Shown piece by piece: positions 9,641 through 63,996 of a stretch of 64,000 bases of DNA; positions within the stretch are counted from its first letter, which is position 1; each line of letters begins with the position of its first letter. The translations under genes were made by a program, and so were the position numbers. The notes below the pieces were generated by a model that was not told the DNA's origin, searched no databases, and saw only the letters and a program-made list of their open reading frames with translations. The DNA is taken from positions 1 through 64,000 of the forward strand of contig JAQGDQ010000804.1 in assembly GCA_030141605.1 (NCBI GenBank), given 5' to 3'. This DNA comes from Tubiluchus corallicola (lineage: Eukaryota > Animalia > Priapulida).

Positions 9641-33099
<23,459 letters not shown>

Positions 33100-34700
33100 C
33101 TTGCTTCTGGATCTGACACCTGCTTAAAACTTTGTCGTTGATCTGTGACTGTTATAATTTTGTTAATAGGACGGCCGTCTTGTTATAGCAGCCTCAAAAA
33201 CACATAGAGCGAGCATGCTAATTTAGCTGTCAATCAAGTTTTACCTGTCAATAAAATGATAAGAACCTACGCAGGTGAAAATGACGATTAAAGACATTAG
33301 GAAAAGATCAGGCTAGTTTATTAAGCAAATAAGTAAAAACATTTGCCTGTGAGTCGTTGAGATAGTTTCTTGTTTTGAGATAATAAAACTTAACCAAGTT
33401 CTTTGGCAAATAAATGAAACACAAGTCACCTTCACTGGCCTAGCTTTTTGTTATCATAATAATCTAATCGTAAATGACCTTGCCTAAACTTGAACGCAAA
33501 GAGATCAACATTAGTGCATTACTTAGCGTAATTTCCCGATGTACATGCAGTGAGTGCGTGTACTTACTTATATCAATAAACGATCAATCAGTGATTGATA
33601 TTAGTGGTAGAGGTGACTGAATAACCTTGACTTTGTAAAAAAAAGTCTATCAAATTATTCTAGTGTAATTTACACTAAGCTAATGAACAAGCAGTTGCAA
33701 TCACTTTATTAAAGCGAGTGAGCATAAAGACAATTTTTGAATGTACATCTTTGAGTGGGAGCCTTAAAGGTTGATCATATTTTTGTTAGTGGTGTTGCTG
33801 TTATTGTTGCTGCTGCTGCTGCTGTTGTTGTCTGTGTTGCAGTTTTGTTGCTGATGCTGTTTTTGTCGTTGTTGTTGCCACATTTATCTTTGAAAGTTGT
33901 CAGAAGCCCCTGAATGTGTATGGGAAAAATTTTCTGCTTAGATAAAGACCGAAATTTAATTGGATTGAAACAGGAATATCGAACGACAAATAAAAACGCC
34001 TCGATGAGACAAGTCGAATGGTATATATTCTTCAGTTTGGATAAGGGTGGTTGGTTTGGTGACCCTTGGTCTTTTCCGCCTTTATTTTAGTTTTTAGCTT
34101 TTGTTTATGTTTATTTTGTAACATTCAGAGACGAACAAATTTTTTACTTACTCACGTATAAGTTATATCCATATTGGTCGGCGACCCACCATGAGGAAAA
34201 AACGTACATTGTGTGTCAAAAGATACATTGTCAAAACATACATTGTGTGTCAAAAGATACATTGTGTGTCAAAGGATACATTGGAGACAGAAAGGCCTGC
34301 TTCTGGTTTTTAAAGGCAGTGGCTTGTAACCCATCAGATGGCCATGAATTACTTCACTGGGAAATGTAATTTCTTTGTAACCAAACAATGCAACTTCAAT
34401 AAAATCACATTCACATTGATTACCCTCAAACAAAATTATGACGTCATTTCAAGATCATTTTAAAGGCGAAGATCATATACACAACATCATGAAATCTGTA
34501 AATAATTTTTTAAAAAACGAATTAATGTTAATGAAAGCTTAATTTGTTGGTAATAAAGTAAGCCAATCCACTTGCAATGAATTAAAAATGTGCCACTTGA
34601 CTACAAAGAGACTACTACTTGGCTAGAAATCTCTACAGTTGCCTTCAAGATTTCTGTTCCATGTAAAGGGGCTGTACCTTCGATAAACTTTACTTTGTCA

Positions 34701-35907
34701 AGGAATGAGCTGTCCCACGTGTTTCAACTCAGAACAAAGCTAGTATATTTCTGCTAGGTTCGGCATCTCATCTTCGAGGAGTGAGCTGTCCCACGTGTTT
34801 CAACTCCGAACAAAGCTAGTATATTTCTGCTAGGTTCGGCATCTCATCTTCGAGGAATGAGCTGTCCCACGCGTTTCAACTCCGAACAAAGCTAGTATAT
34901 TTCTGCTAGGTTCGACATCTCATCTTCGAGGAATGAGCTGTCCCACGTGTTTCAACTCTGAACAAAGCTAGTATATTTCTGCTAGGTTCGGCATCTCATC
35001 TTCGAGGAATGAGCTGTCCCACACGTTTCAACTCCGAACAAAGCTAGTATATTTCTGCTAGGTTCGGCATCTCATCTTCGAGGAATGAGCTGTCCCACGC
35101 GTTTCAACTCCGAACAAAGCTAGTATATTTCTGCTAGGTTCGGCATCTCATCTTCGAGGAATGAGCTGTCCCATGCGTTTCAACTCCGAACAAAGCTAGT
35201 ATATTTCTGCTAGGTTCGACATCTCATCTTCGAGGAATGAGCTGTCCCACGCGTTTCAACTCCGAACAAAGCTAGTATATTTCTGCTAGGTTCGGCATCT
35301 CATCTTCGAGGAATGAGCTGTCCCACGCATTTCAACTCCGAACAAAGCTAGTATATTTCTGCTAGGTTCGACATCTCATCTTCGAGGAATGAGCTGTCCC
35401 ACGCATTTCAACTCCGAACAAAGCTAGTATATTTCTGCTAGGTTCGGCATCTCATCTTCGAGGAATGAGCTGTCCCACGCATTTCAACTCCGAACAAAGC
35501 TAGTATATTTCTGCTAGGTTCGACATCTCATCTTCGAGGAATGAGCTGTCCCACGTGTTTCAACTCTGAACAAAGCTAGTATATTTCTGCTAGGTTCGGC
35601 ATCTCATCTTCGAGGAATGAGCTGTCCCACACGTTTCAACTCCAAACAAAGCTAGTATATTTCTGCTAGGTTCGGCATCTCATCTTCGAGGAATGAGCTG
35701 TCCCACGCGTTTCAACTCTGAACAAAGTTAGTATATTTCTGCTAGGTTCGGCATCTCATCTTCGAGGAATGAGCTGTCCCATGCGTTTCAACTCCGAACA
35801 AAGCTAGTATATTTCTGCTAGGTTCGGCATCTCATCTTCGAGGAATGAGCTGTCCCACGTGTTTCAACTCCGAACAAAGCTAGTATATTTCTGCTAGGTT
35901 CGGCATC
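34701..35907. repeat. 76-bp satellite, about 16 copies
   Basis: Unit AGGAATGAGCTGTCCCACGYGTTTCAACTCCGAACAAAGCTAGTATATTTCTGCTAGGTTCGGCATCTCATCTTCG. Confidence 0.97.
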
Positions 35908-36545
35908 GGTACCGAAACTAGAATATTTCAAAAAATATTAAGGCATCAGGGAAAAACTCCTGTCATGACATATGGAGAAATGCACGTTGTGAAAGATTGC
36001 CCAGTTAAAACTGCTTGATAAAGTTGAACGTAACAGTCAGCATTGAAACTGTACCAACAATAACGGTACAGAAAACAGCCACTATTTAAAGATTACATGA
36101 TCGAAATTACTTTGTTGAAGTTGAATAACAGCATCCGATTAAAGATTATTTTATTGAAAATATCACTATTAAAACAACTAAATGGACAGTAACTTATACT
36201 TAAATTTAAAAAAATTAATAGCTTGTTGTTTATCATAAAATTCAGATTTGTGCACAATCCAAATCATACTCATTAGCTCCCTGAAAAATATAAAAAGCGA
36301 TCTGACAAAACTAAAATAACAAATCAGTGACGAGTCAACGACCTATCGTATGCCCAATGGTCTATTGACTATTGTAGTCACGGGGCAGGCATAATTCTAA
36401 AATAAAAGAAATCAGCCGTCGAGACAGCAAGCACAGCAATAATATGTTCATCAGTTTAGTGAATTGGCGCTCAAAATTACGCCCACTGCGCCAAAAATTA
36501 CGTTCAAGTCCATCAAATTAGGGAGACCTACTGCTATGTCAACGA

Positions 36546-37600
36546 CTTCTTCTTCTTCTTCGCTGAATCAAACGTCCAGGGACATGATTCTGCTCACCTC
36601 TCTATGCCAGGACTCCCTACACGCTGCAATGCCCCAAGTACATTTGTTTCTAAGGATCAATGCTGAAGTGTTTAAATCTTTCTGTGCAAAATCTAAGTAA
36701 GTTAACATCTGTCCTCCTGCAGGTTTTTAGCTGGTTCTATGGCTTGTTGAAGAGCAATCTTCACTGGAATATCATCAGGTAGTCTAAGCATATGCCCAAT
36801 CCATCTTAAACATCGCCTTTTTATTTTTCTTGTCCAAGGTTCTTCTTTTATTTTTTCATATAGATCTTTGTTTGAAATTTTCTTTGGCCATCTAATACCC
36901 AAAATGTTTCTGTAATTTCGCCTTTGAAACGCATCGATTTCAGCTTTATGACTTGCTTTTAATGTCCAGAGCTCAGAGTTATACAGAAATACAGTTTCGA
37001 CTAAGGCTGAGAATATTCTGATTTTTGTTTCTAAAGAAATATTCCTATTTTCAAAAACTTTTGTTAGTTTTGAGTAAGCCGATAATGCCATTATCTTTCG
37101 TCTTAATATGTCGTCCTCTGTTGCTAGCAGACTACCGAGATACTTGCATCTTTGCCATGATTCATCACCATGGCGTGTTAGTGAAACTCTTCAGTTTTAT
37201 TTTTGTTTATAACGAGATCCATTCTGTTCAGTTTCTCCTCTATTGAGTTTTTTATTTCATCTACTTCTTCTTTGTTTCTTGTAATCCATGCCACATCATC
37301 AGCATACTGCATTGATATCGTAGTTGACTTACTTTGTAGAGAGCTGTAACTGTGTTCTTGTCTTACTTCATTTGGTATTAATTTAGGATCAAGAATTGTG
37401 TAGTTGTGATCTTCTAGGTCTTTCAATGGTATAACTTTGTCCTCAGTGAGAGCAATGGCAAGATATAAAGTGAAAAGTACAGGGCTTAGACAGTCACCCT
37501 GAGGTACTCCTTTTCCCTTCACACCTGACTTGAATTAATGTATTTTCTAACATTATACTTATGATGTATATTTCATCAGGTTCAAGGATTTCTTCAACGA
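36546..37600 (-). mobile_element. 5'-truncated, frameshifted RTE-like LINE (reverse transcriptase C-terminal part)
   Basis: GVPQGDCLSPVLF, QYADD, KYLGS, FLYNSELWTL, RWIGHMLR motifs; (GAA)n tail at 36546-36561. Confidence 0.88.
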
Positions 37601-38977
37601 CGGTGGCCAAGAAAGATCAGGAAATATGAAGAATCTTTGGAATTTTGCGTATGACATAAAAATCAGTATCAGTAACGGCCAGATACACAGAGATATTGTG
37701 ACAGTGCTGAATGTAAAATTGAGTGCTCTAACTAGAGGTTCTAATCCGAATAAGCGATGCTCATTTTTAATGATAATTTCTTAACACAATTTAACGTAAC
37801 ATTGATTTGAAATTTTGATATTTCCTTCTACTTGTAGAGGTCGTCGAAAAGGGACACAACGACACGATTTCTATATTTCGCTCTTTAAGATTTTCTATAT
37901 TGCTCAGTGCTGCAAACCTTTGATCTAGTACGGTTATGGGCATTGTAATTTTCTCTTTTGGTTTTGTACATTTCGTTGTATATTTTTAGTTTATAGAATA
38001 AAAACTACTGTACTTTTCTTTATGTATACGAGATTATTTATTTACACGCTAGCTGGATCTAACTCACATAATAGTCTTTATTATATATATGCAAGCGTTT
38101 TCTTTGCAACGAAGCAGTAGTAATAGTTTGATCAATATCCTATAGTTATGCGTTCTTATGTCTAACCTACAGCGCGCCTTTTTTGAGATTAGCAGTTACT
38201 AAACTAATATAATTAGGGCAACTTTACTTAAATCAAATTGGATAACGTCTGCTGACATTGCGCTTTATAATTTGCTGTTACCAACTATTTTGGCAAGTTT
38301 CTTGTGAAATATTACATCTCTTCTGAAGTATTAGCAACAAAAGTTTTTATTCTCGCTAAGTGAATCATAGGTTCAATTGTTGTTGCAGGTTAAAAACGTC
38401 AGTTAAACGATATCTGTTTGCTTCTTATATAAACTAGTCTTGATAACCACCTATTGTTCCTGTGTGACACAACAGTCACAACTTTGTGTTCTTTTTGAGT
38501 AAAATTCAGAGTGCTTCGTCATCTCATGAGCCGAATCTCCACAAGCCACTCTCCCTACCCTTTTGAACATTCTTTTATCCATCACTTCTATCCTTACTTT
38601 GCCCAACTCTTTTTTTAAATTGCCTAAAAACCTTCGGTTTTTTTGTTCTTTTTTTTAACAACCTAACGAGTTTTACTTCTGGTTCTTGCCATTTATTATG
38701 TGCACGCTGTCATATAATCATTATTATTAATATCTATTTTTTCCCAGTGTTTCTTGATATTGTATTTGTATTTACATTTCCAAATAAATTTATTATTATT
38801 ATAAAAATTGCACAATTGTATTCGGAATTTTTTTTTCAAAAAACATTCACAACAAAGTGTCCGGTGCCCAAACTACCGTGTCCACGTTCTGATTTTGAAT
38901 TGCTGGACTAAGCTACAGTCCAGATAACAGACTGACGTGCCAGCTTCTTTGTAAAAAACAGAAAAAGTTAATAGTGA

Positions 38978-38991
38978 TCTTTTTATTTCAG
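38978..38991 (+). promoter_or_regulatory. Candidate 3' splice acceptor upstream of SPTSS
   Basis: TCTTTTTATTTCAG. Confidence 0.55.
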
Positions 38992-39066
38992 CATGCTATG
39001 ACTGTAACTGGATTTCTCTGAGCAAAGTGTGATGTTAGTCCATGTTGGTCATTAGATCAGTGAAAA

Positions 39067-39354
39067 ATGGACACTGTTAATTCAAGTGAACTGAACTCTA
39101 CAGAAGACAGATCTGGTTTAGGAGTACAAAGGAGACGCGGACTTCATGAACGATTCTTGTCGTACATTCACTGGCTATATCTGCAATACCTCCTGGGAAC
39201 AGCGTTGTACATGTTGGAGCCCTGGGAACAGGCCGTATTTAATTCAGTAATTGTCGTCATTTTTTGCATGTCTGTTTACACAACTTACGTGTTCTTGCCT
39301 CAGTACACTAGGAATTTATTGGTATATGCAGGCATTTCAGACAGCTTGTTATAA
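39067..39354 (+). CDS. SPTSSA: Serine palmitoyltransferase small subunit (SPTSSA/SPTSSB family), 95 aa, intronless
   Basis: WLYLQYLLGTALYMLEPWEQAVFNS...YTTYVFLPQ matches the family signature. Confidence 0.93.
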   Translation: MDTVNSSELNSTEDRSGLGVQRRRGLHERFLSYIHWLYLQYLLGTALYMLEPWEQAVFNSVIVVIFCMSVYTTYVFLPQYTRNLLVYAGISDSLL

Positions 39355-39369
39355 ATCCTTGTCTCACAG
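39355..39369 (+). promoter_or_regulatory. Candidate 3' splice acceptor between SPTSS and AIRIM
   Basis: ATCCTTGTCTCACAG directly after the TAA; no ATG between it and 39402. Confidence 0.65.
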
Positions 39370-39401
39370 AGTGTGATTTAGAAGATTTCTGTTATTGGAT
39401 T

Positions 39402-40001
39402 ATGCAAAAAGCCTTGTTTGCTGAAGCGCAGACATTTTTTAGTGTTGCTAGGCAACAGGTATCCGCTTGGAAAGAAGTTATTAATTCAGGAGAAACAAAC
39501 TTCAATAATTTGGAAAATTTTGCTGAGCAGCTTTCCGTCATAAAACTCACATCGGCCGAGTCATCAGACATATTATTGCAGTTTCCCGATGTGAAAGACA
39601 AAGTGATTGTTAAAATTCTGGAAGCTTGTGAAGGGCAGACGGCTCAGCTGTTGGAGAAGTTGCAAAAACTTGGCGAGATCTCCGTGCAAGTAACACAGAA
39701 CGCTGACAAAGTTGAAGAAGTTTATCAGGCATCAGATTTGCCGTTAGACGTGATTCTTCAAGCGACCGCTACACTTCCGTCGGTTGCAGATATACTAGAG
39801 TTTGTGAATCGATATAAAACGGTTTTCTCTAACGAACATGAGAACAAGACGAACTATTTGCAAAAGTTAGATTACTGGAACGTTGACGTACTTCGAAGAA
39901 TTAAAAACCTGTGGCTAAAAACTAGAGCAATTGACGAACTGGAAAAGAAGGTGGCGCCATACCTTGTCTATTTTATGAAAGAAAATTTCAAAACAGGATA
40001 A
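39402..40001 (+). CDS. AIRIM: C1orf109/AIRIM (AFG2-interacting ribosome maturation factor) orthologue, 199 aa, intronless
   Basis: Length about 200 aa; motifs QQ..W, LENFAEQL, FPDVK, LQ.TA..PSVADILE and terminal V.F are collinear with human C1orf109 as recalled. Confidence 0.85.
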   Translation: MQKALFAEAQTFFSVARQQVSAWKEVINSGETNFNNLENFAEQLSVIKLTSAESSDILLQFPDVKDKVIVKILEACEGQTAQLLEKLQKLGEISVQVTQNADKVEEVYQASDLPLDVILQATATLPSVADILEFVNRYKTVFSNEHENKTNYLQKLDYWNVDVLRRIKNLWLKTRAIDELEKKVAPYLVYFMKENFKTG

Positions 40002-40016
40002 TCTTTTTTGCTTTAG
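40002..40016 (+). promoter_or_regulatory. Candidate 3' splice acceptor between AIRIM and OTUD6B
   Basis: TCTTTTTTGCTTTAG directly after the TAA; no ATG between it and 40070. Confidence 0.72.
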
Positions 40017-40069
40017 CTACTGTTACCGCTCAGTTTTTTCCGGCACTGATTGCCGTGACTGTTCCCGTA

Positions 40070-40948
40070 ATGGCAGAAAGCTCTGAAGATCTTCAGCAAA
40101 GACACAGACAAGAGCGGAAAGAGTTGCAGAGTTACATCCAGCAGTTGAAGCACGCCGTTCCAAAAGGCGACAAAAAGAAGAAAAAAGAAGTAACCGCGGA
40201 AGTAGCCAGGCTGACGGCAGAACTGGAAGAAAAACAGGCAAAGGAAAGTGCGGGTTCGAATCCGGAGAGAATCCTGGAAGATGAAATGAAGAAGCTGAGT
40301 GTCGACTCCAGTGACGTAAACTCTCCCCGCGAACAAGCCGAGATCACAGATAGACAAAAGAAAAAGTCAAAGGCACAGAAGAGGAGAGAAAAAAAAGCTG
40401 AGATGGAAAAAGAGAGAGAAAGGAACATCGCGGAACAAGAAGAGGAGAACTTACTTGGTTCGCGAAACGTAGAAGCGCAGAAACTTGCCTCTCTTTTAGC
40501 TTCTAGAGGTTTAGCGATACATGAGGTTCCTTCCGATGGAAATTGCTTGTACAATGCAATAAGCCATCAGCTAAACCTCAAAGGCAAATTCTTAAACGTT
40601 CAGACGTTGAGACGGTTGACATCTCAGTACATGGTCTCTCATCCTGACACTTTTCTTCCCTTTCTTGTCAATCATGACACGGGGGAACTGCTGAGCGCCG
40701 ACGATTACGACTCGTACTGCGACGACATCGCCAACACGACCGCGTGGGCCGGACAGCCCGAGATCCGAGCCGTTACGCAAGTCCTGGAGGCGGCGATCGA
40801 AATCTTGCAAGCGGATGGTCCCTTGATCATCATAGGTGAAGAATTTGCTCATAAGGAATCACTCAGTATCACTTATCATCGACATGCTTATGGTTTAGGA
40901 GAACATTATAACTCTACTTTACCATTAACAGAAAACTCCGACAGTTAA
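40070..40948 (+). CDS. OTUD6B: OTU deubiquitinase OTUD6B orthologue, 292 aa, intronless
   Basis: RHRQERKELQ N-terminus, SKAQKRREKK, catalytic PSDGNCLY and YHRHAYGLGEHYNS; first ATG is 40070 (the track starts at an upstream GTG). Confidence 0.96.
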   Translation: MAESSEDLQQRHRQERKELQSYIQQLKHAVPKGDKKKKKEVTAEVARLTAELEEKQAKESAGSNPERILEDEMKKLSVDSSDVNSPREQAEITDRQKKKSKAQKRREKKAEMEKERERNIAEQEEENLLGSRNVEAQKLASLLASRGLAIHEVPSDGNCLYNAISHQLNLKGKFLNVQTLRRLTSQYMVSHPDTFLPFLVNHDTGELLSADDYDSYCDDIANTTAWAGQPEIRAVTQVLEAAIEILQADGPLIIIGEEFAHKESLSITYHRHAYGLGEHYNSTLPLTENSDS

Positions 40949-41144
40949 TGAAGTAAGAAGGCTATGAATATGTAATGTTCGTGGCACTGATTGGTTTAAT
41001 GTAGCCACAATTTGAATTTGTTTTGTGATGAATCACTGATTACTCATTTTGATAGCAATGGTGTGCATTGGAAGTTTTGTATGCAATTATTGTAGCACAT
41101 TGATTTTGATGATAATGATGGGCCATTTGATTTTTTTGTGGTAA

Positions 41145-41150
41145 AATAAA
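41145..41150 (+). terminator. Candidate poly(A) signal for the three-ORF cluster
   Basis: AATAAA about 200 nt after the OTUD6B stop, followed by T/GT-rich sequence. Confidence 0.6.
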
Positions 41151-42185
41151 CATGCTTTTTATCACTCATATTTGTTCAACATTTTTTGTTTATTCACCCT
41201 TATTTGTTCTATTTAAAAAAAGCAAAACTTTGGTGAGATACAGAGCCCAGAACTTCTCAGCAAGTTATATATATAATATGATATCCGTCATTTCTATATA
41301 ATTGTGCAATCCAGCACTCAATGACAAGACCTACTCATTGTAGATGGTTGAGGTTGGACTGGAATCTAGCTGATCAACAAGGCTAAGCTTCTAGAACAAG
41401 ACAGTGTTCAGATGTAGGTGTCTTAGCCATGTTCAGATGTGAATATGTCATCTCTCTACGAGGATATTATATACATAGCTTGCAATAAACGCAGCTCTCA
41501 TAGTTTTCAAGCATATATTTATTTTACACATACATTTTACTCAGTTCAGTTTCTATCTGGTTGGTTAAACATGGTTAAAGTTATTGACTTCAGTTTAGTA
41601 ATGAAATTCTCACTTCCCGCGCAATCCTAGGGTCTAACATCAGTGGCAGCTCCTGCATAGGCACTGTGGAACTGCAGCGCCCCCTGCAGTTCTTTACTCG
41701 ATATTATCAATAACATACAATATTATGAGTCTTTTTCTTTAATTCTTTCTTTATACTTGTACATTCTTCAATCCTTAAGCTTAATGTCACTAGCCATCCC
41801 CTAGCTCAAGAAAAAAACCACAAAAATCCTTGTATGGCTTCATAGCTCCACGGAAGTGAGCTTCATAGCTCACTTTGTTTGGCTGTTGTGAGCATACGGC
41901 TATGCACTGATGTCCAAGATAAGAAGCTGCACGCTACGTAGAGAAAGCACTGTCGCTCACACAGTGCCGACCCTGTTTTTGCAAGTGTAAGGTAGTGTTT
42001 CTTTCTCGTGTTTCTTTTATACGTTTGTTTTGTTTTTCACAATATTAAAACAATGGCTAAAAATCTTTTGAAGCAACGCCCTCACCAACTTCCACTGTCT
42101 AACGTGGTTTACACATTCAAATGAGGAATCATCGTCAAATCAAGTCACTCAGCTCAGTCACTTTTGAATTTGCTTAATATAACTG

Positions 42186-44000
42186 CTATTTATTAGCATG
42201 TTTTTTTACGCTGTGAATTTTTAAACCATGCATGTGTCGAAATGCTGCTCCACATTCAGTACAGATGCATGGTTCTTCTTTTGAGTGAACTCTCCTCGTG
42301 TGCTTGTTTAAATAAGTTGCATCAGCGAAAGCTAGAGAACACTCGGTGCACTTAAATGGTTTTCTACCCGTATGACTGCTCATATGTATTTTTAAGTTTG
42401 CCGAGTATCGATAAGCTGCACCACACTCGCTGCAAATGTATGGCCTTTCCTGTGTGTGAACCCTCATGTGCCTTTTCAAATGAGTTGTATCAACAAAAGC
42501 TGATGAACATTCAGTGCACTTGTAAGGTTTTTCTCCAGTGTGAATTCTTAAATGTGTTTTTAAACTAGCAGACTGACTAAAAGCATGTTGACATAAAGTA
42601 CATTTAAAAGGTTTTTCACCTGTATGCACCCTCATGTGTATTTTTAAAGTGTGAGATTCGAAAAAGCTTGCTGGACACTGAGTGCATTTACATGGCTTCT
42701 CAGAAGAATGAGTTCTCATGTGTTTTTTCAAAACATTGGGACAATTAAATGAAGAGCTGCAAATGCTACACTTGAATGGCTTCAACCCAATATGGCTCAA
42801 TATGTGTCTCCTCAAAGAAACTAACTGAGCAAAAGTGGCATTGCACTTATCACATTTATAAGGTTTTACTCCTGTGTGAGTTCTCATATGTGTCTTAAGG
42901 TGTGCCATGTCAATAAAAGAGGCTTCACATTTATCACACTTGTACGGCTTTCTGCCTATGTGAATCAGTAAATGTTTCTTTAAGCTAGATGAATACCCAA
43001 AGACTGCTTGGCATTTGTCACATTTGTAAGGTTTCTCACCCGTATGGCTCCTCTTATGTGAGGTTAAATGTGACGAGTGAATGAAAGCAGCACAACACTT
43101 GTCACATTTAAATGGTCTTTCTCCTGTGTGAATCATCACATGCTTTTTCAAACTGAAAGCATGACCAAAGGAAGCTTGACATTGGTCACACTTAAATGGC
43201 TTATCTCCAGTATGCATCTTTAAGTGCCTTTTCAGATAACATTCCCAGGAGAAACTGGCATTGCAGTGGCTACACTTAAAACGCTTTGCAGATCCAGTGT
43301 GAATCTTCATGTGAGTAATCAAGTGAGTAGAGTGACTAAATGTCACATGACACAGCCGGCATTGAAAAAGCTGAGTCACCAAATGTTTTCTCAAATGCTT
43401 CTTCAAGGTGGATTTGACAGAAAAAGCAGAATTACATTGACTACATTTATAAGGTCTTTCGCCCGTGTGACTTCTTCCGTGTACCTTCAAGCCTGACAAG
43501 TCCCTAAAGGCTGCTGCACATTCAGTGCATTTAAATGGCTTATCTCCCGTGTGAGATTTAACATGTCGTTTCAAGCTGGACTTATGATTGAAAGACGTCT
43601 CACACATATCACACTGAAATTTCTTCTCACAGCTGTGGGTTCTCAAGTGTGAGGAAGTTTTGAAAACCGACAGACATAGGAGACAAGCGAATGGTGGTCT
43701 TTCTAGTTCTGCTGCTTTTGAAGAGGATCCGTCATTTTGTCCATCCAACAGATTTTCTTCAAACTTTACATCATCATTTGTAAGAGAGTCTTCTTCAAAC
43801 TTTGTAAAGTTATCGAGATCATCAACTTCACATTCTTTATCATCAACTTTCCCACCTTCTAACTGGTATGACGAATCTGGATCATACTTCACAGCATTGT
43901 CACTAACGCTAACATCGCACGCTTCGTCGCAAACTTCCGATGCTGGCTCAATTTTAATTAGAAAGCTTTCCAGTTGATAAACATTATGATGGGTATCCAT
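42186..44000 (-). CDS. C2H2 zinc-finger protein, 604 aa, 17 intact fingers plus one degenerate, single coding exon
   Basis: Repeated CxxC-x12-HxxxH with TGEKP-type linkers; acidic N-terminus; acceptor TTTCATCCCTTACAG about 50 nt upstream of the ATG. Confidence 0.95.
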
Positions 44001-44454
44001 GACGACCAGTTAGTGCTCAAGCATCAGCTGATTAGATGATTTTTGTCATTCCTGTAAGGGATGAAATTGTTTAATTTTAATTGCGGATGCATTAAGACAT
44101 AGCAAATAAATGATCCAAGGTGAAAATAATATTATAGCATTAACAATTTCGTAAAGACAATTCTTACAAGACGACTTTAAAAATGTTCCAGGTAATGTTG
44201 TTACCCATTGTTCGACAGTGGTATAGATTTTACGTGTAAATTCTGTTAGCCTGCTATCATTTGAGGATCAATAAACGAAAAATATGTAGAATGTCTATGC
44301 AGTATTGATCATTGGTAGACAGACTAATAGCATGTATTATAGCACGCAGTTTTGACTTTGTGCAAAATGTTTTGGATGGTTTTGTTGTGATTGTGTGCTG
44401 TTGGTGTTGGTACTGTAGGTGTCGTCATTGTTGTCATCATCATCATCATCACCA

Positions 44455-50454: not shown

Positions 50455-62300
<11,846 letters not shown>

Positions 62301-63328: not shown

Positions 63329-63996
63329 CAGGGATGTTACCAAAATCAAAATTTATCAAACATAAGATACCCATTCATTAGAATATTAATCTGTTTAATT
63401 GTTTTTGGATTTAAGTATCCTTAATGATTAACGTTTAAAGATACGCCTCATTGCCGGTAGGAGCACGTCACAAGCTGTTATGTAAACGAGATTTTCGCTT
63501 TATTTGAACTCGACCAGACGGTTTAGTCTAGTGGTAACGCGTCTGCTTTCCGTCTGAGAGGTCGTGAGTTCGAACCAGCGGCCGGGTGATACCAAAGACT
63601 TTAAAAATGGTACCTGCTGTTGCCCTGCCTGACGCGTGGTATTTAGGGTAAAAGTGGGGTAATAATAGTCTCTGTTATGTAGTTGTAGGTTGTTATTTAC
63701 AGTCGGCGATAATAGCTCTTTGAGCTAATGTTAATTGTTCACCCAAAAGCCGACTTCAAATAAAGATTATTATTATTGTTATTATTATTTAGCCAAGATT
63801 TTTCAGCAGTTTTTGACATCTAGGAGAAAAGAGGAGCTAAACTGGATAAATTCTCGTAAAACTTCTGAGAAATGCTACGGAAAAGTAACTGAAATTTTAG
63901 CTGCGAAAGTTAATAAATTTTGCCAAAATCGAAACTTAACCAAAAGTGTGATTATCAGTAAACCGAACGGAAAATTTCGTTTCCGTAACATCCCCG
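63329..63996. mobile_element. hAT-like MITE
   Basis: TIRs CAGGGATGTTAC / GTAACATCCCCG, similar to the element at 50869; right TSD truncated by the window edge (AGTG vs AGTA). Confidence 0.65.
63512..63790 (+). mobile_element. tRNA-derived SINE (core resembles Meta-type SINEs) inserted in the MITE
   Basis: A box TAGTCTAGTGG, B box GTTCGAACC, core GATACCAAAGACTTTAAAAATGGTACCTGC, AATAAA and (ATT)n tail. Confidence 0.8.

Follow-up and report, generated by a model that had tools for sequence, protein, structure and literature searches.

In animals, the operons of lineages that trans-splice a spliced leader (SL) and the polycistronic mRNAs that insects translate by ribosome scanning are usually seen as separate solutions. 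Here we compare with both a cluster of three genes, SPTSS, C1orf109 (AIRIM) and OTUD6B, whose open reading frames (ORF1, ORF2 and ORF3, in that order) lie in a 64,000-nucleotide (nt) stretch of DNA (contig JAQGDQ010000804.1, positions 1 to 64,000), referred to below as the window. The operons of Ciona intestinalis are resolved by SL trans-splicing, have no intercistronic DNA and contain many single-exon genes, and their upstream cistrons are mostly free of AATAAA (PMC1488885, PMC2760879). SL operons are also common in chaetognaths (PMC12460157) and Macrostomum (PMC8629364) and have been demonstrated in Hydra (PMC3273482); SL-bearing lineages have been surveyed (PMC7986045). For silkworm uENF1-uENF2-PP, a mature tricistronic mRNA and its scanning were demonstrated (PMC2978622), and green-algal bicistrons have few AUGs, weak internal contexts and a preference for a weak ORF1 start (PMC11892635). 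Polycistronic loci of Drosophila comprise 159 dicistronic, 7 tricistronic and 2 tetracistronic cases (PMC4528330).

The three ORFs are intact, intronless and on the + strand within 39067-40948, with stop-to-start gaps of 47 nt and then 68 nt (Table 1). An earlier note on this DNA had claimed three complete co-directional ORFs at these distances, and both the coordinates and the Pfam families bear it out. All three Pfam matches exceed the curated cut-offs, and the family assignments were confirmed by further protein searches. The note had also stated that the spacers hold no canonical AATAAA and that the first one follows ORF3. This is correct, as the only copies in 38000-42200 are at 38783, 41145 and 41484 and 38784-41144 is free of them; the variant hexamers TATAAA (39350, across the ORF1 stop) and AAGAAA (39979) do occur. 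Its remark that other genes of the genome sprawl agrees with an immunoglobulin (Ig)-repeat gene of ~20 kb and a HECW-like gene of >9 kb, both intron-bearing. A single transcription unit is likely because the spacing is tight, there is one canonical poly(A) signal and linkage is probable in two relatives; we hold their co-transcription, in whatever form, to be highly probable. As judged from the DNA, the unit is real, probably old and likely co-transcribed, and either operon-like or like a polycistronic mRNA. Our tentatively preferred explanation is a single transcription unit giving nested, 3′-coterminal mRNAs through leader splicing, combined with scanning. The probabilities attached to this and to other readings are judgements, not computed odds.

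The locus resembles the operons of Ciona in having unrelated, single-exon genes on the same strand, <100 nt apart, with a candidate acceptor directly behind the upstream gene. It differs in that an SL and upstream poly(A) sites would be putative here, in that all of its genes are intronless and in that its middle ORF avoids AUG. The operons of chaetognaths, Macrostomum and Hydra are likewise tight groups of housekeeping genes, in which downstream genes follow an unpaired acceptor; however, SL addition is documented in theirs. With the silkworm and algal mRNAs the locus shares serial ORFs, few AUGs and weak contexts upstream of the last ORF, and a strong last start. In contrast, those systems have a leaky ORF1 start, and both their mature polycistronic mRNA and its scanning were demonstrated; the silkworm proteins are also related. 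Here the proteins are unrelated housekeeping proteins, ORF1 starts in a strong context and an acceptor-like site precedes every ORF. The Drosophila loci are alike in their short stop-to-start gaps, mostly unrelated genes and over-representation of small proteins, but their monocistronic forms usually arise via other promoters or poly(A) sites and not from acceptors in the spacers. The new point is that acceptors and AUG avoidance occur together at one locus. Among the papers listed on these genes in connection with operons or polycistronic mRNAs, no title or abstract opening describes the linkage, and operon tables of other papers may bear on it; the names were absent from three readable supplements of the chaetognath paper (PMC12460157).

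Homologues were used to follow the linkage. ORF2 had a sole match among 158 candidates (P0001, 79% identity), the best ORF3 match among the 120 listed of 1295 was P0002 (78%), and ORF1 had three matches, led by P0122 (88%) and P0123 (53%). P0122, P0001 and P0002 are each a single Logan protein with a longest contig of 3078 nt. A profile search for ORF2 over 1.84 billion representatives returned 33 matches; the best after P0001 was P0131 (31% over 192 aa), which in a quick 31-row tree joins the window ORF2 with an SH-like approximate likelihood ratio (SH-aLRT) support of 84. P0131 and the ORF1 homologue P0123 are both on Logan contigs of 4039 nt. Judged by the shared contig sizes, and assuming one contig per relative, all three genes are probably linked in one relative and SPTSS and C1orf109 in a second, more distant one, and this linkage is probably old. 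The OTUD6B of the relative, P0002, begins 5-6 residues earlier than ORF3, and those residues resemble the translation of the window spacer at 40055-40069. This suggests that part of the 5′ untranslated region (UTR) of ORF3 is conserved.

Two sequencing runs, neither recorded as RNA, were examined in the form of assembled contigs. Run X1, which covers repeats and intergenic stretches as well, may be DNA; run X2 is RNA by guess. X2 provides at least 7 pieces, ~85-96% alike, within all three ORFs. The 13 listed differences between X1 and ORF3 comprise 8 synonymous and 5 non-synonymous changes. Three intronless genes side by side, with OTUD6B split into pieces at several other genomic loci, could be retrocopies or pseudogenes that accumulated recently by chance and share no expression. 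This explanation is largely refuted, and we consider it extremely improbable. All three ORFs are intact and 78-88% conserved in the relative, the ORF3 differences lean synonymous, and the linkage probably persists at 31% ORF2 identity. Further, C1orf109 and OTUD6B are on sequences of equal length in four of the five named species having both listed (Glandiceps, Lineus, Sinanodonta and Branchiostoma lanceolatum, the exception being Potamilus), which suggests an old shared chromosome. In Sinanodonta their locus tags are 391 apart. The two genes were thus probably on one old chromosome or ancestral linkage group, though not as neighbors in the named species, and local rearrangement with intron loss would therefore be favored over random retroposition.

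Metagenome loci and trees add to this picture of OTUD6B. None of 15 metagenome OTUD6B loci (from at least 593 pattern matches; loci of 1-7 kb, distant) had an ORF1 or ORF2 partner by tblastn, and in several of them the OTUD6B match is split into pieces, as by introns. An unrelated locus (L003:1384-4053) has an OTUD6B free of introns and, downstream on its strand, a multi-exon gene that, going by a motif, we take to resemble alanyl-tRNA synthetase. Among the matches listed, the closest named OTUD6B is from a hemichordate (54%) and the top named matches are all bilaterian. A tree of 42 rows, 41 of them chosen from 120 matches that include no named tunicate, chaetognath, flatworm or cnidarian, puts the window pair outside the sampled deuterostomes (100/96) and molluscs, within a polytomy. 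Approximately unbiased (AU) tests failed to reject a chordate (P 0.14) or an ambulacrarian (P 0.057) placement.

Acceptors were scored with a model trained on 10 acceptors of neighboring introns, which had been assigned from reading frames. A pyrimidine tract followed by YAG ends at 38991, 39369 and 40016 (sites 1, 2 and 3, ahead of ORF1, ORF2 and ORF3), and these sites fall in the top 0.6%, 6.5% and 1.1% of the 7455 AGs in the window. They rank 2nd, 11th and 3rd of the 180 + strand AGs in 38700-41200, and sites that are equally good or better occur in 3.9%, 17% and 4.9% of random stretches of matching length. Sites 2 and 3 both end exactly 15 nt past the upstream stop; an equally good AG is found 10-25 nt downstream of 167 (site 2) and 25 (site 3) of the 3718 TAAs in the window. 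The three acceptor-like AGs beat chance. The claim that each ORF is preceded by a pyrimidine tract and YAG thus stands, except that the ORF2 site is only moderate, being 11th among the local AGs. As claimed, ORF2 and ORF3 do start at the first ATG downstream of the AG, but stretches as long as these two are free of ATG in 57% and 40% of cases across the window. Acceptor-like sites near starts are not special to the unit, since the zinc-finger and Ig-repeat genes of the window also have one just before the first ATG. In the X1 allele, the tract of site 1 carries a T>C change and is still pyrimidine-rich, and the upstream ATG (uATG) at 38998 is missing. Another strong acceptor-like AG lies at 38747, 244 nt upstream of site 1, where X1 depth is repeat-like.

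The search for donors agreed with the earlier statement that no strong one lies in the few hundred nt upstream. There is no donor-like GT in 38500-38990, where the best scores -2.4 bits compared with -1.5 to 7.7 bits for true donors (leave-one-out). Candidates farther upstream are at 38398 (2.7 bits) and 36697 (5.9 bits). The best of these is equalled or exceeded by 0.5% of all GTs, and with 267 GTs scanned the two are no better than chance expectation. The reads gave no evidence of a leader exon upstream of 37550. Within 38991-40070 the best donor reaches 1.7 bits, in a model with one faulty training site. An unpaired acceptor is reported to attract an SL (PMC8629364). Because of this, and because no donor is nearby, we lean slightly toward a trans-spliced SL over a local cis exon as the leader.

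Acceptors without a nearby donor would also suit a classic operon resolved by SL addition, as in Ciona. In such an operon, trans-splicing at each acceptor, with polyadenylation there or just before, would produce one monocistronic mRNA per ORF, and the 3′ UTRs of the two upstream mRNAs would measure ~15 nt. Single-exon genes on the same strand, <100 nt apart, with no AATAAA in the upstream cistrons, are as described for Ciona (PMC1488885, PMC2760879), and operons of this kind contain 15-20% of genes in several animal groups. TATAAA at 39350 could serve as a variant poly(A) signal, and the chordate placement was not rejected (AU P 0.14). Nevertheless, we consider this explanation unlikely, as it gives no reason for the AUG avoidance of ORF2 or for the weak internal contexts. 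In addition, no SL was seen in the contigs, and trans-splicing would have to be assumed for the lineage.

The earlier note had dismissed leaky scanning on the grounds that ORF1 and ORF2 contain many internal ATGs. This dismissal fails because it was built on a wrong count; ORF1 has only 4 and ORF2 only 3. Using a rule taken from other eukaryotes, under which a context is weak if it has neither a -3 purine nor a +4 G, six of these seven ATGs are weak. The weak share is lower in ORF3 (1 of 11 internal ATGs, P 0.002) and in three control ORFs (36 of 91, P 0.04). The ATGs inside ORF2 open 1, 10 and 8 codons. In total, ORF2 has 3 AUGs where ~10 are expected (P ~0.01); out of frame it has 2 against 4.0-4.8 expected, which makes ATG the 2nd-7th most depleted of the 64 triplets. 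No out-of-frame depletion was seen in ORF1 or ORF3. The window ORF2, P0001 and P0131 each have a single internal Met, at residues 192, 192 and 188, whereas 28 other full-length C1orf109 homologues (omitting two long off-family matches and one dynein-named match) have a median of 5, the first at residue 176 or earlier. Taking the linked ORF2 proteins as two lineages, a late, single internal Met is associated with them (Fisher P 0.002). Since ORF2 is AUG-poor and the internal contexts of ORF1 and ORF2 are mostly weak, ribosome scanning through ORF2 is plausible, and the last start (ORF3) is in the strong context G-3/G+4.

These observations could be explained by scanning alone. One mature tricistronic mRNA would then be translated by leaky scanning and reinitiation, with at most the first acceptor used and the internal AGs incidental. 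Four uATGs precede ORF1, and the upstream ORFs (uORFs) they open, one of which (39042-39080) runs across the ORF1 start in another frame, would let ribosomes bypass ORF1, while the shortness of ORF1 would permit reinitiation; a 16-codon ORF terminates 25 nt ahead of the ORF2 start. ORF2 is AUG-poor in two lineages, and its start, with A-3 but no G+4, belongs to the class at which leakage occurs in the silkworm tricistronic mRNA (PMC2978622). The ORFs are also ordered from short to long, intronless and followed by one AATAAA, and the contigs are colinear over the AGs. Scanning alone is nonetheless somewhat unlikely in our judgement. It has no place for two internal acceptors at the identical +15 offset, one of them in the top 1.1%, and ORF1, two of whose Met are family-conserved, shows no AUG depletion. 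Algal bicistrons prefer a weak ORF1 start (PMC11892635), but here that start has A-3/G+4. A structure like an internal ribosome entry site (an IRES) is unsupported, because RNA folding of five stretches gave a single z of -2.4 (39960-40090) and otherwise nothing. An Rfam scan of the whole window returned zero matches.

The acceptors favor splicing and the AUG avoidance favors scanning, and neither explains both; this leads us to the combined reading. Under it, a single transcription unit, polyadenylated at one common site, would yield nested, 3′-coterminal mRNAs, and a leader spliced to the acceptor ahead of each ORF would place every ORF first on some of them. Because the upstream messages would stay uncut at the spacers, a further route to ORF3 would be open to ribosomes that pass the ORF2 start by leakage, or reinitiate beyond it, and then scan the AUG-poor body of ORF2. 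Polycistronic mRNAs tend to be built for escape from nonsense-mediated decay (PMC3951408), and the intronless downstream region seen here fits this. The long messages would be shielded from that decay by the intron-free region downstream of the first stop. The proposal of the earlier note, one pre-mRNA yielding three mRNAs, thus survives as to the single unit, which is likely, but three monocistronic mRNAs would leave the AUG poverty and weak contexts of ORF2 unexplained. The adenovirus late unit produces nested, 3′-coterminal mRNAs from a single leader, several acceptors and a poly(A) site common to all. The predicted scheme of leader, acceptors and poly(A) site is the same; the difference is that the adenovirus unit is viral and has a cis leader, whereas here nuclear housekeeping genes are involved.

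Several points weigh against the combined reading. X1 contigs run colinear and unspliced over 38942-39400 and 39934-40830, across all three AGs, although X1 may be DNA. Among the 15 joints (of 22) and 12 loose ends (of 208) listed, none falls at the three AGs, and contigs cannot display 5′ ends. One X1 contig opens at 39934, a position away from any AG, with 24 letters that have no match. Several AGs inside the ORFs outscore site 2, and the acceptor scores depend on just 10 sites assigned from reading frames. The AUG statistics are post hoc, having been devised after looking at the data, and the out-of-frame depletion in ORF2 is weak on its own (three nulls gave P 0.046-0.14). Among the 28 other C1orf109 homologues, 3 likewise have at most one internal Met, and ORF3 is Met-poor as well (1.0% vs a median of 2.0%). 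ORF1 is not AUG-poor (2 out-of-frame ATGs vs 1.0-1.8 expected), its homologue P0123 carries 4 internal Met and its start context is strong and not weak. Finally, the linkage rests on matching contig sizes and not on order, strand or spacing in the relatives, and no OTUD6B match with a 4039-nt contig was found among the 120 listed of 1295.

Base composition and a TATA-like motif bring in a further alternative, in which three tightly packed genes are separately promoted, the promoters of ORF2 and ORF3 lying inside upstream coding sequence and the 3′ ends being shared or cryptic. TATAAA at 39350 is 52 nt ahead of the ORF2 start, CpG observed/expected is ~1.05 in ORF2 and ORF3 vs 0.71 across the window, and downstream promoters are frequent at Drosophila polycistronic loci (PMC4528330). 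However, ORF3 has no preceding TATA-like site, and both the acceptors without donors and the ORF2-wide scarcity of AUG would go unexplained. We regard separate promoters as very unlikely.

The locus bears marks of both solutions and is apparently old, and if the combined reading is true, a translational constraint would be written into the Met content of a protein. It would also offer a genome-wide screen, for AUG-poor single-exon genes ahead of close neighbors. Should the animal belong to a group without known trans-splicing, the locus would contribute a further lineage when asking how often operons arose; should the locus instead be an ordinary operon of a tunicate, chaetognath or flatworm, the finding would be routine. 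In the most far-reaching version, a lineage not known to trans-splice would have kept a virus-like unit while C1orf109 eroded to 31%, with one promoter and poly(A) site, one leader and three acceptors, and a middle protein purged of Met so that scanning reaches the third gene. We think this version doubtful.

Table 1. Coordinates of the three-gene unit and of other features in the window.
Feature	Position	Strand	Remarks
Acceptor-like site 1, pyrimidine tract + CAG	38976..38991	+	top 0.6% of 7455 window AGs
Four short uORFs before ORF1	38993-39001, 38998-39021, 39032-39055, 39042-39080	+	ATGs between acceptor-like site 1 and ORF1
ORF1, SPTSS, serine palmitoyltransferase small subunit, 95 aa, intronless	39067..39354	+	start A-3/G+4; Pfam PF11779 SPT_ssu-like, E 2e-18
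Spacer 1, 47 nt, ATG-free	39355..39401	+	acceptor-like site 2 ends at 39369; TATAAA at 39350 overlaps ORF1 stop
ORF2, C1orf109/AIRIM ribosome maturation factor, 199 aa, intronless	39402..40001	+	start A-3/C+4; Pfam PF15011 CA109-like, E 1e-20
Spacer 2, 68 nt, ATG-free	40002..40069	+	acceptor-like site 3 ends at 40016
ORF3, OTUD6B deubiquitinase, 292 aa, intronless	40070..40948	+	start G-3/G+4; Pfam PF02338 OTU, E 9e-29
Canonical AATAAA, first in the unit; predicted shared poly(A) signal	41145..41150	+	motif scan
Ig-repeat gene	33124-12313	-	signal-peptide exon, ATG at 33099
Tandem array	34700-35910		units of ~57 nt
LINE-like reverse transcriptase fragment	36600-37540	-	broken; upstream of the unit
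C2H2 zinc-finger gene	42186-44052	-	single coding exon of 604 aa
HECW/NEDL-type ubiquitin ligase exons	53268-62300	+
tRNA-derived SINE-like element	63500-63780	+

The unit stands tail to tail with the zinc-finger gene, in which the acceptor-like AG is 52 nt ahead of the start and is followed straight away by a short uORF. The Ig-repeat and HECW-like genes were named from reading their translations. The former contains at least 7 near-identical tandem Ig-like exons and has a strong donor candidate at 34151. In the latter, an exon near 54990-55280 seems partly duplicated, and the large exon holds a 30-nt coding tandem repeat near 60070-60270. The tandem array adjoins the fragment that resembles a long interspersed nuclear element (LINE). 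The short interspersed nuclear element (SINE)-like sequence may resemble the MetaSINEs.

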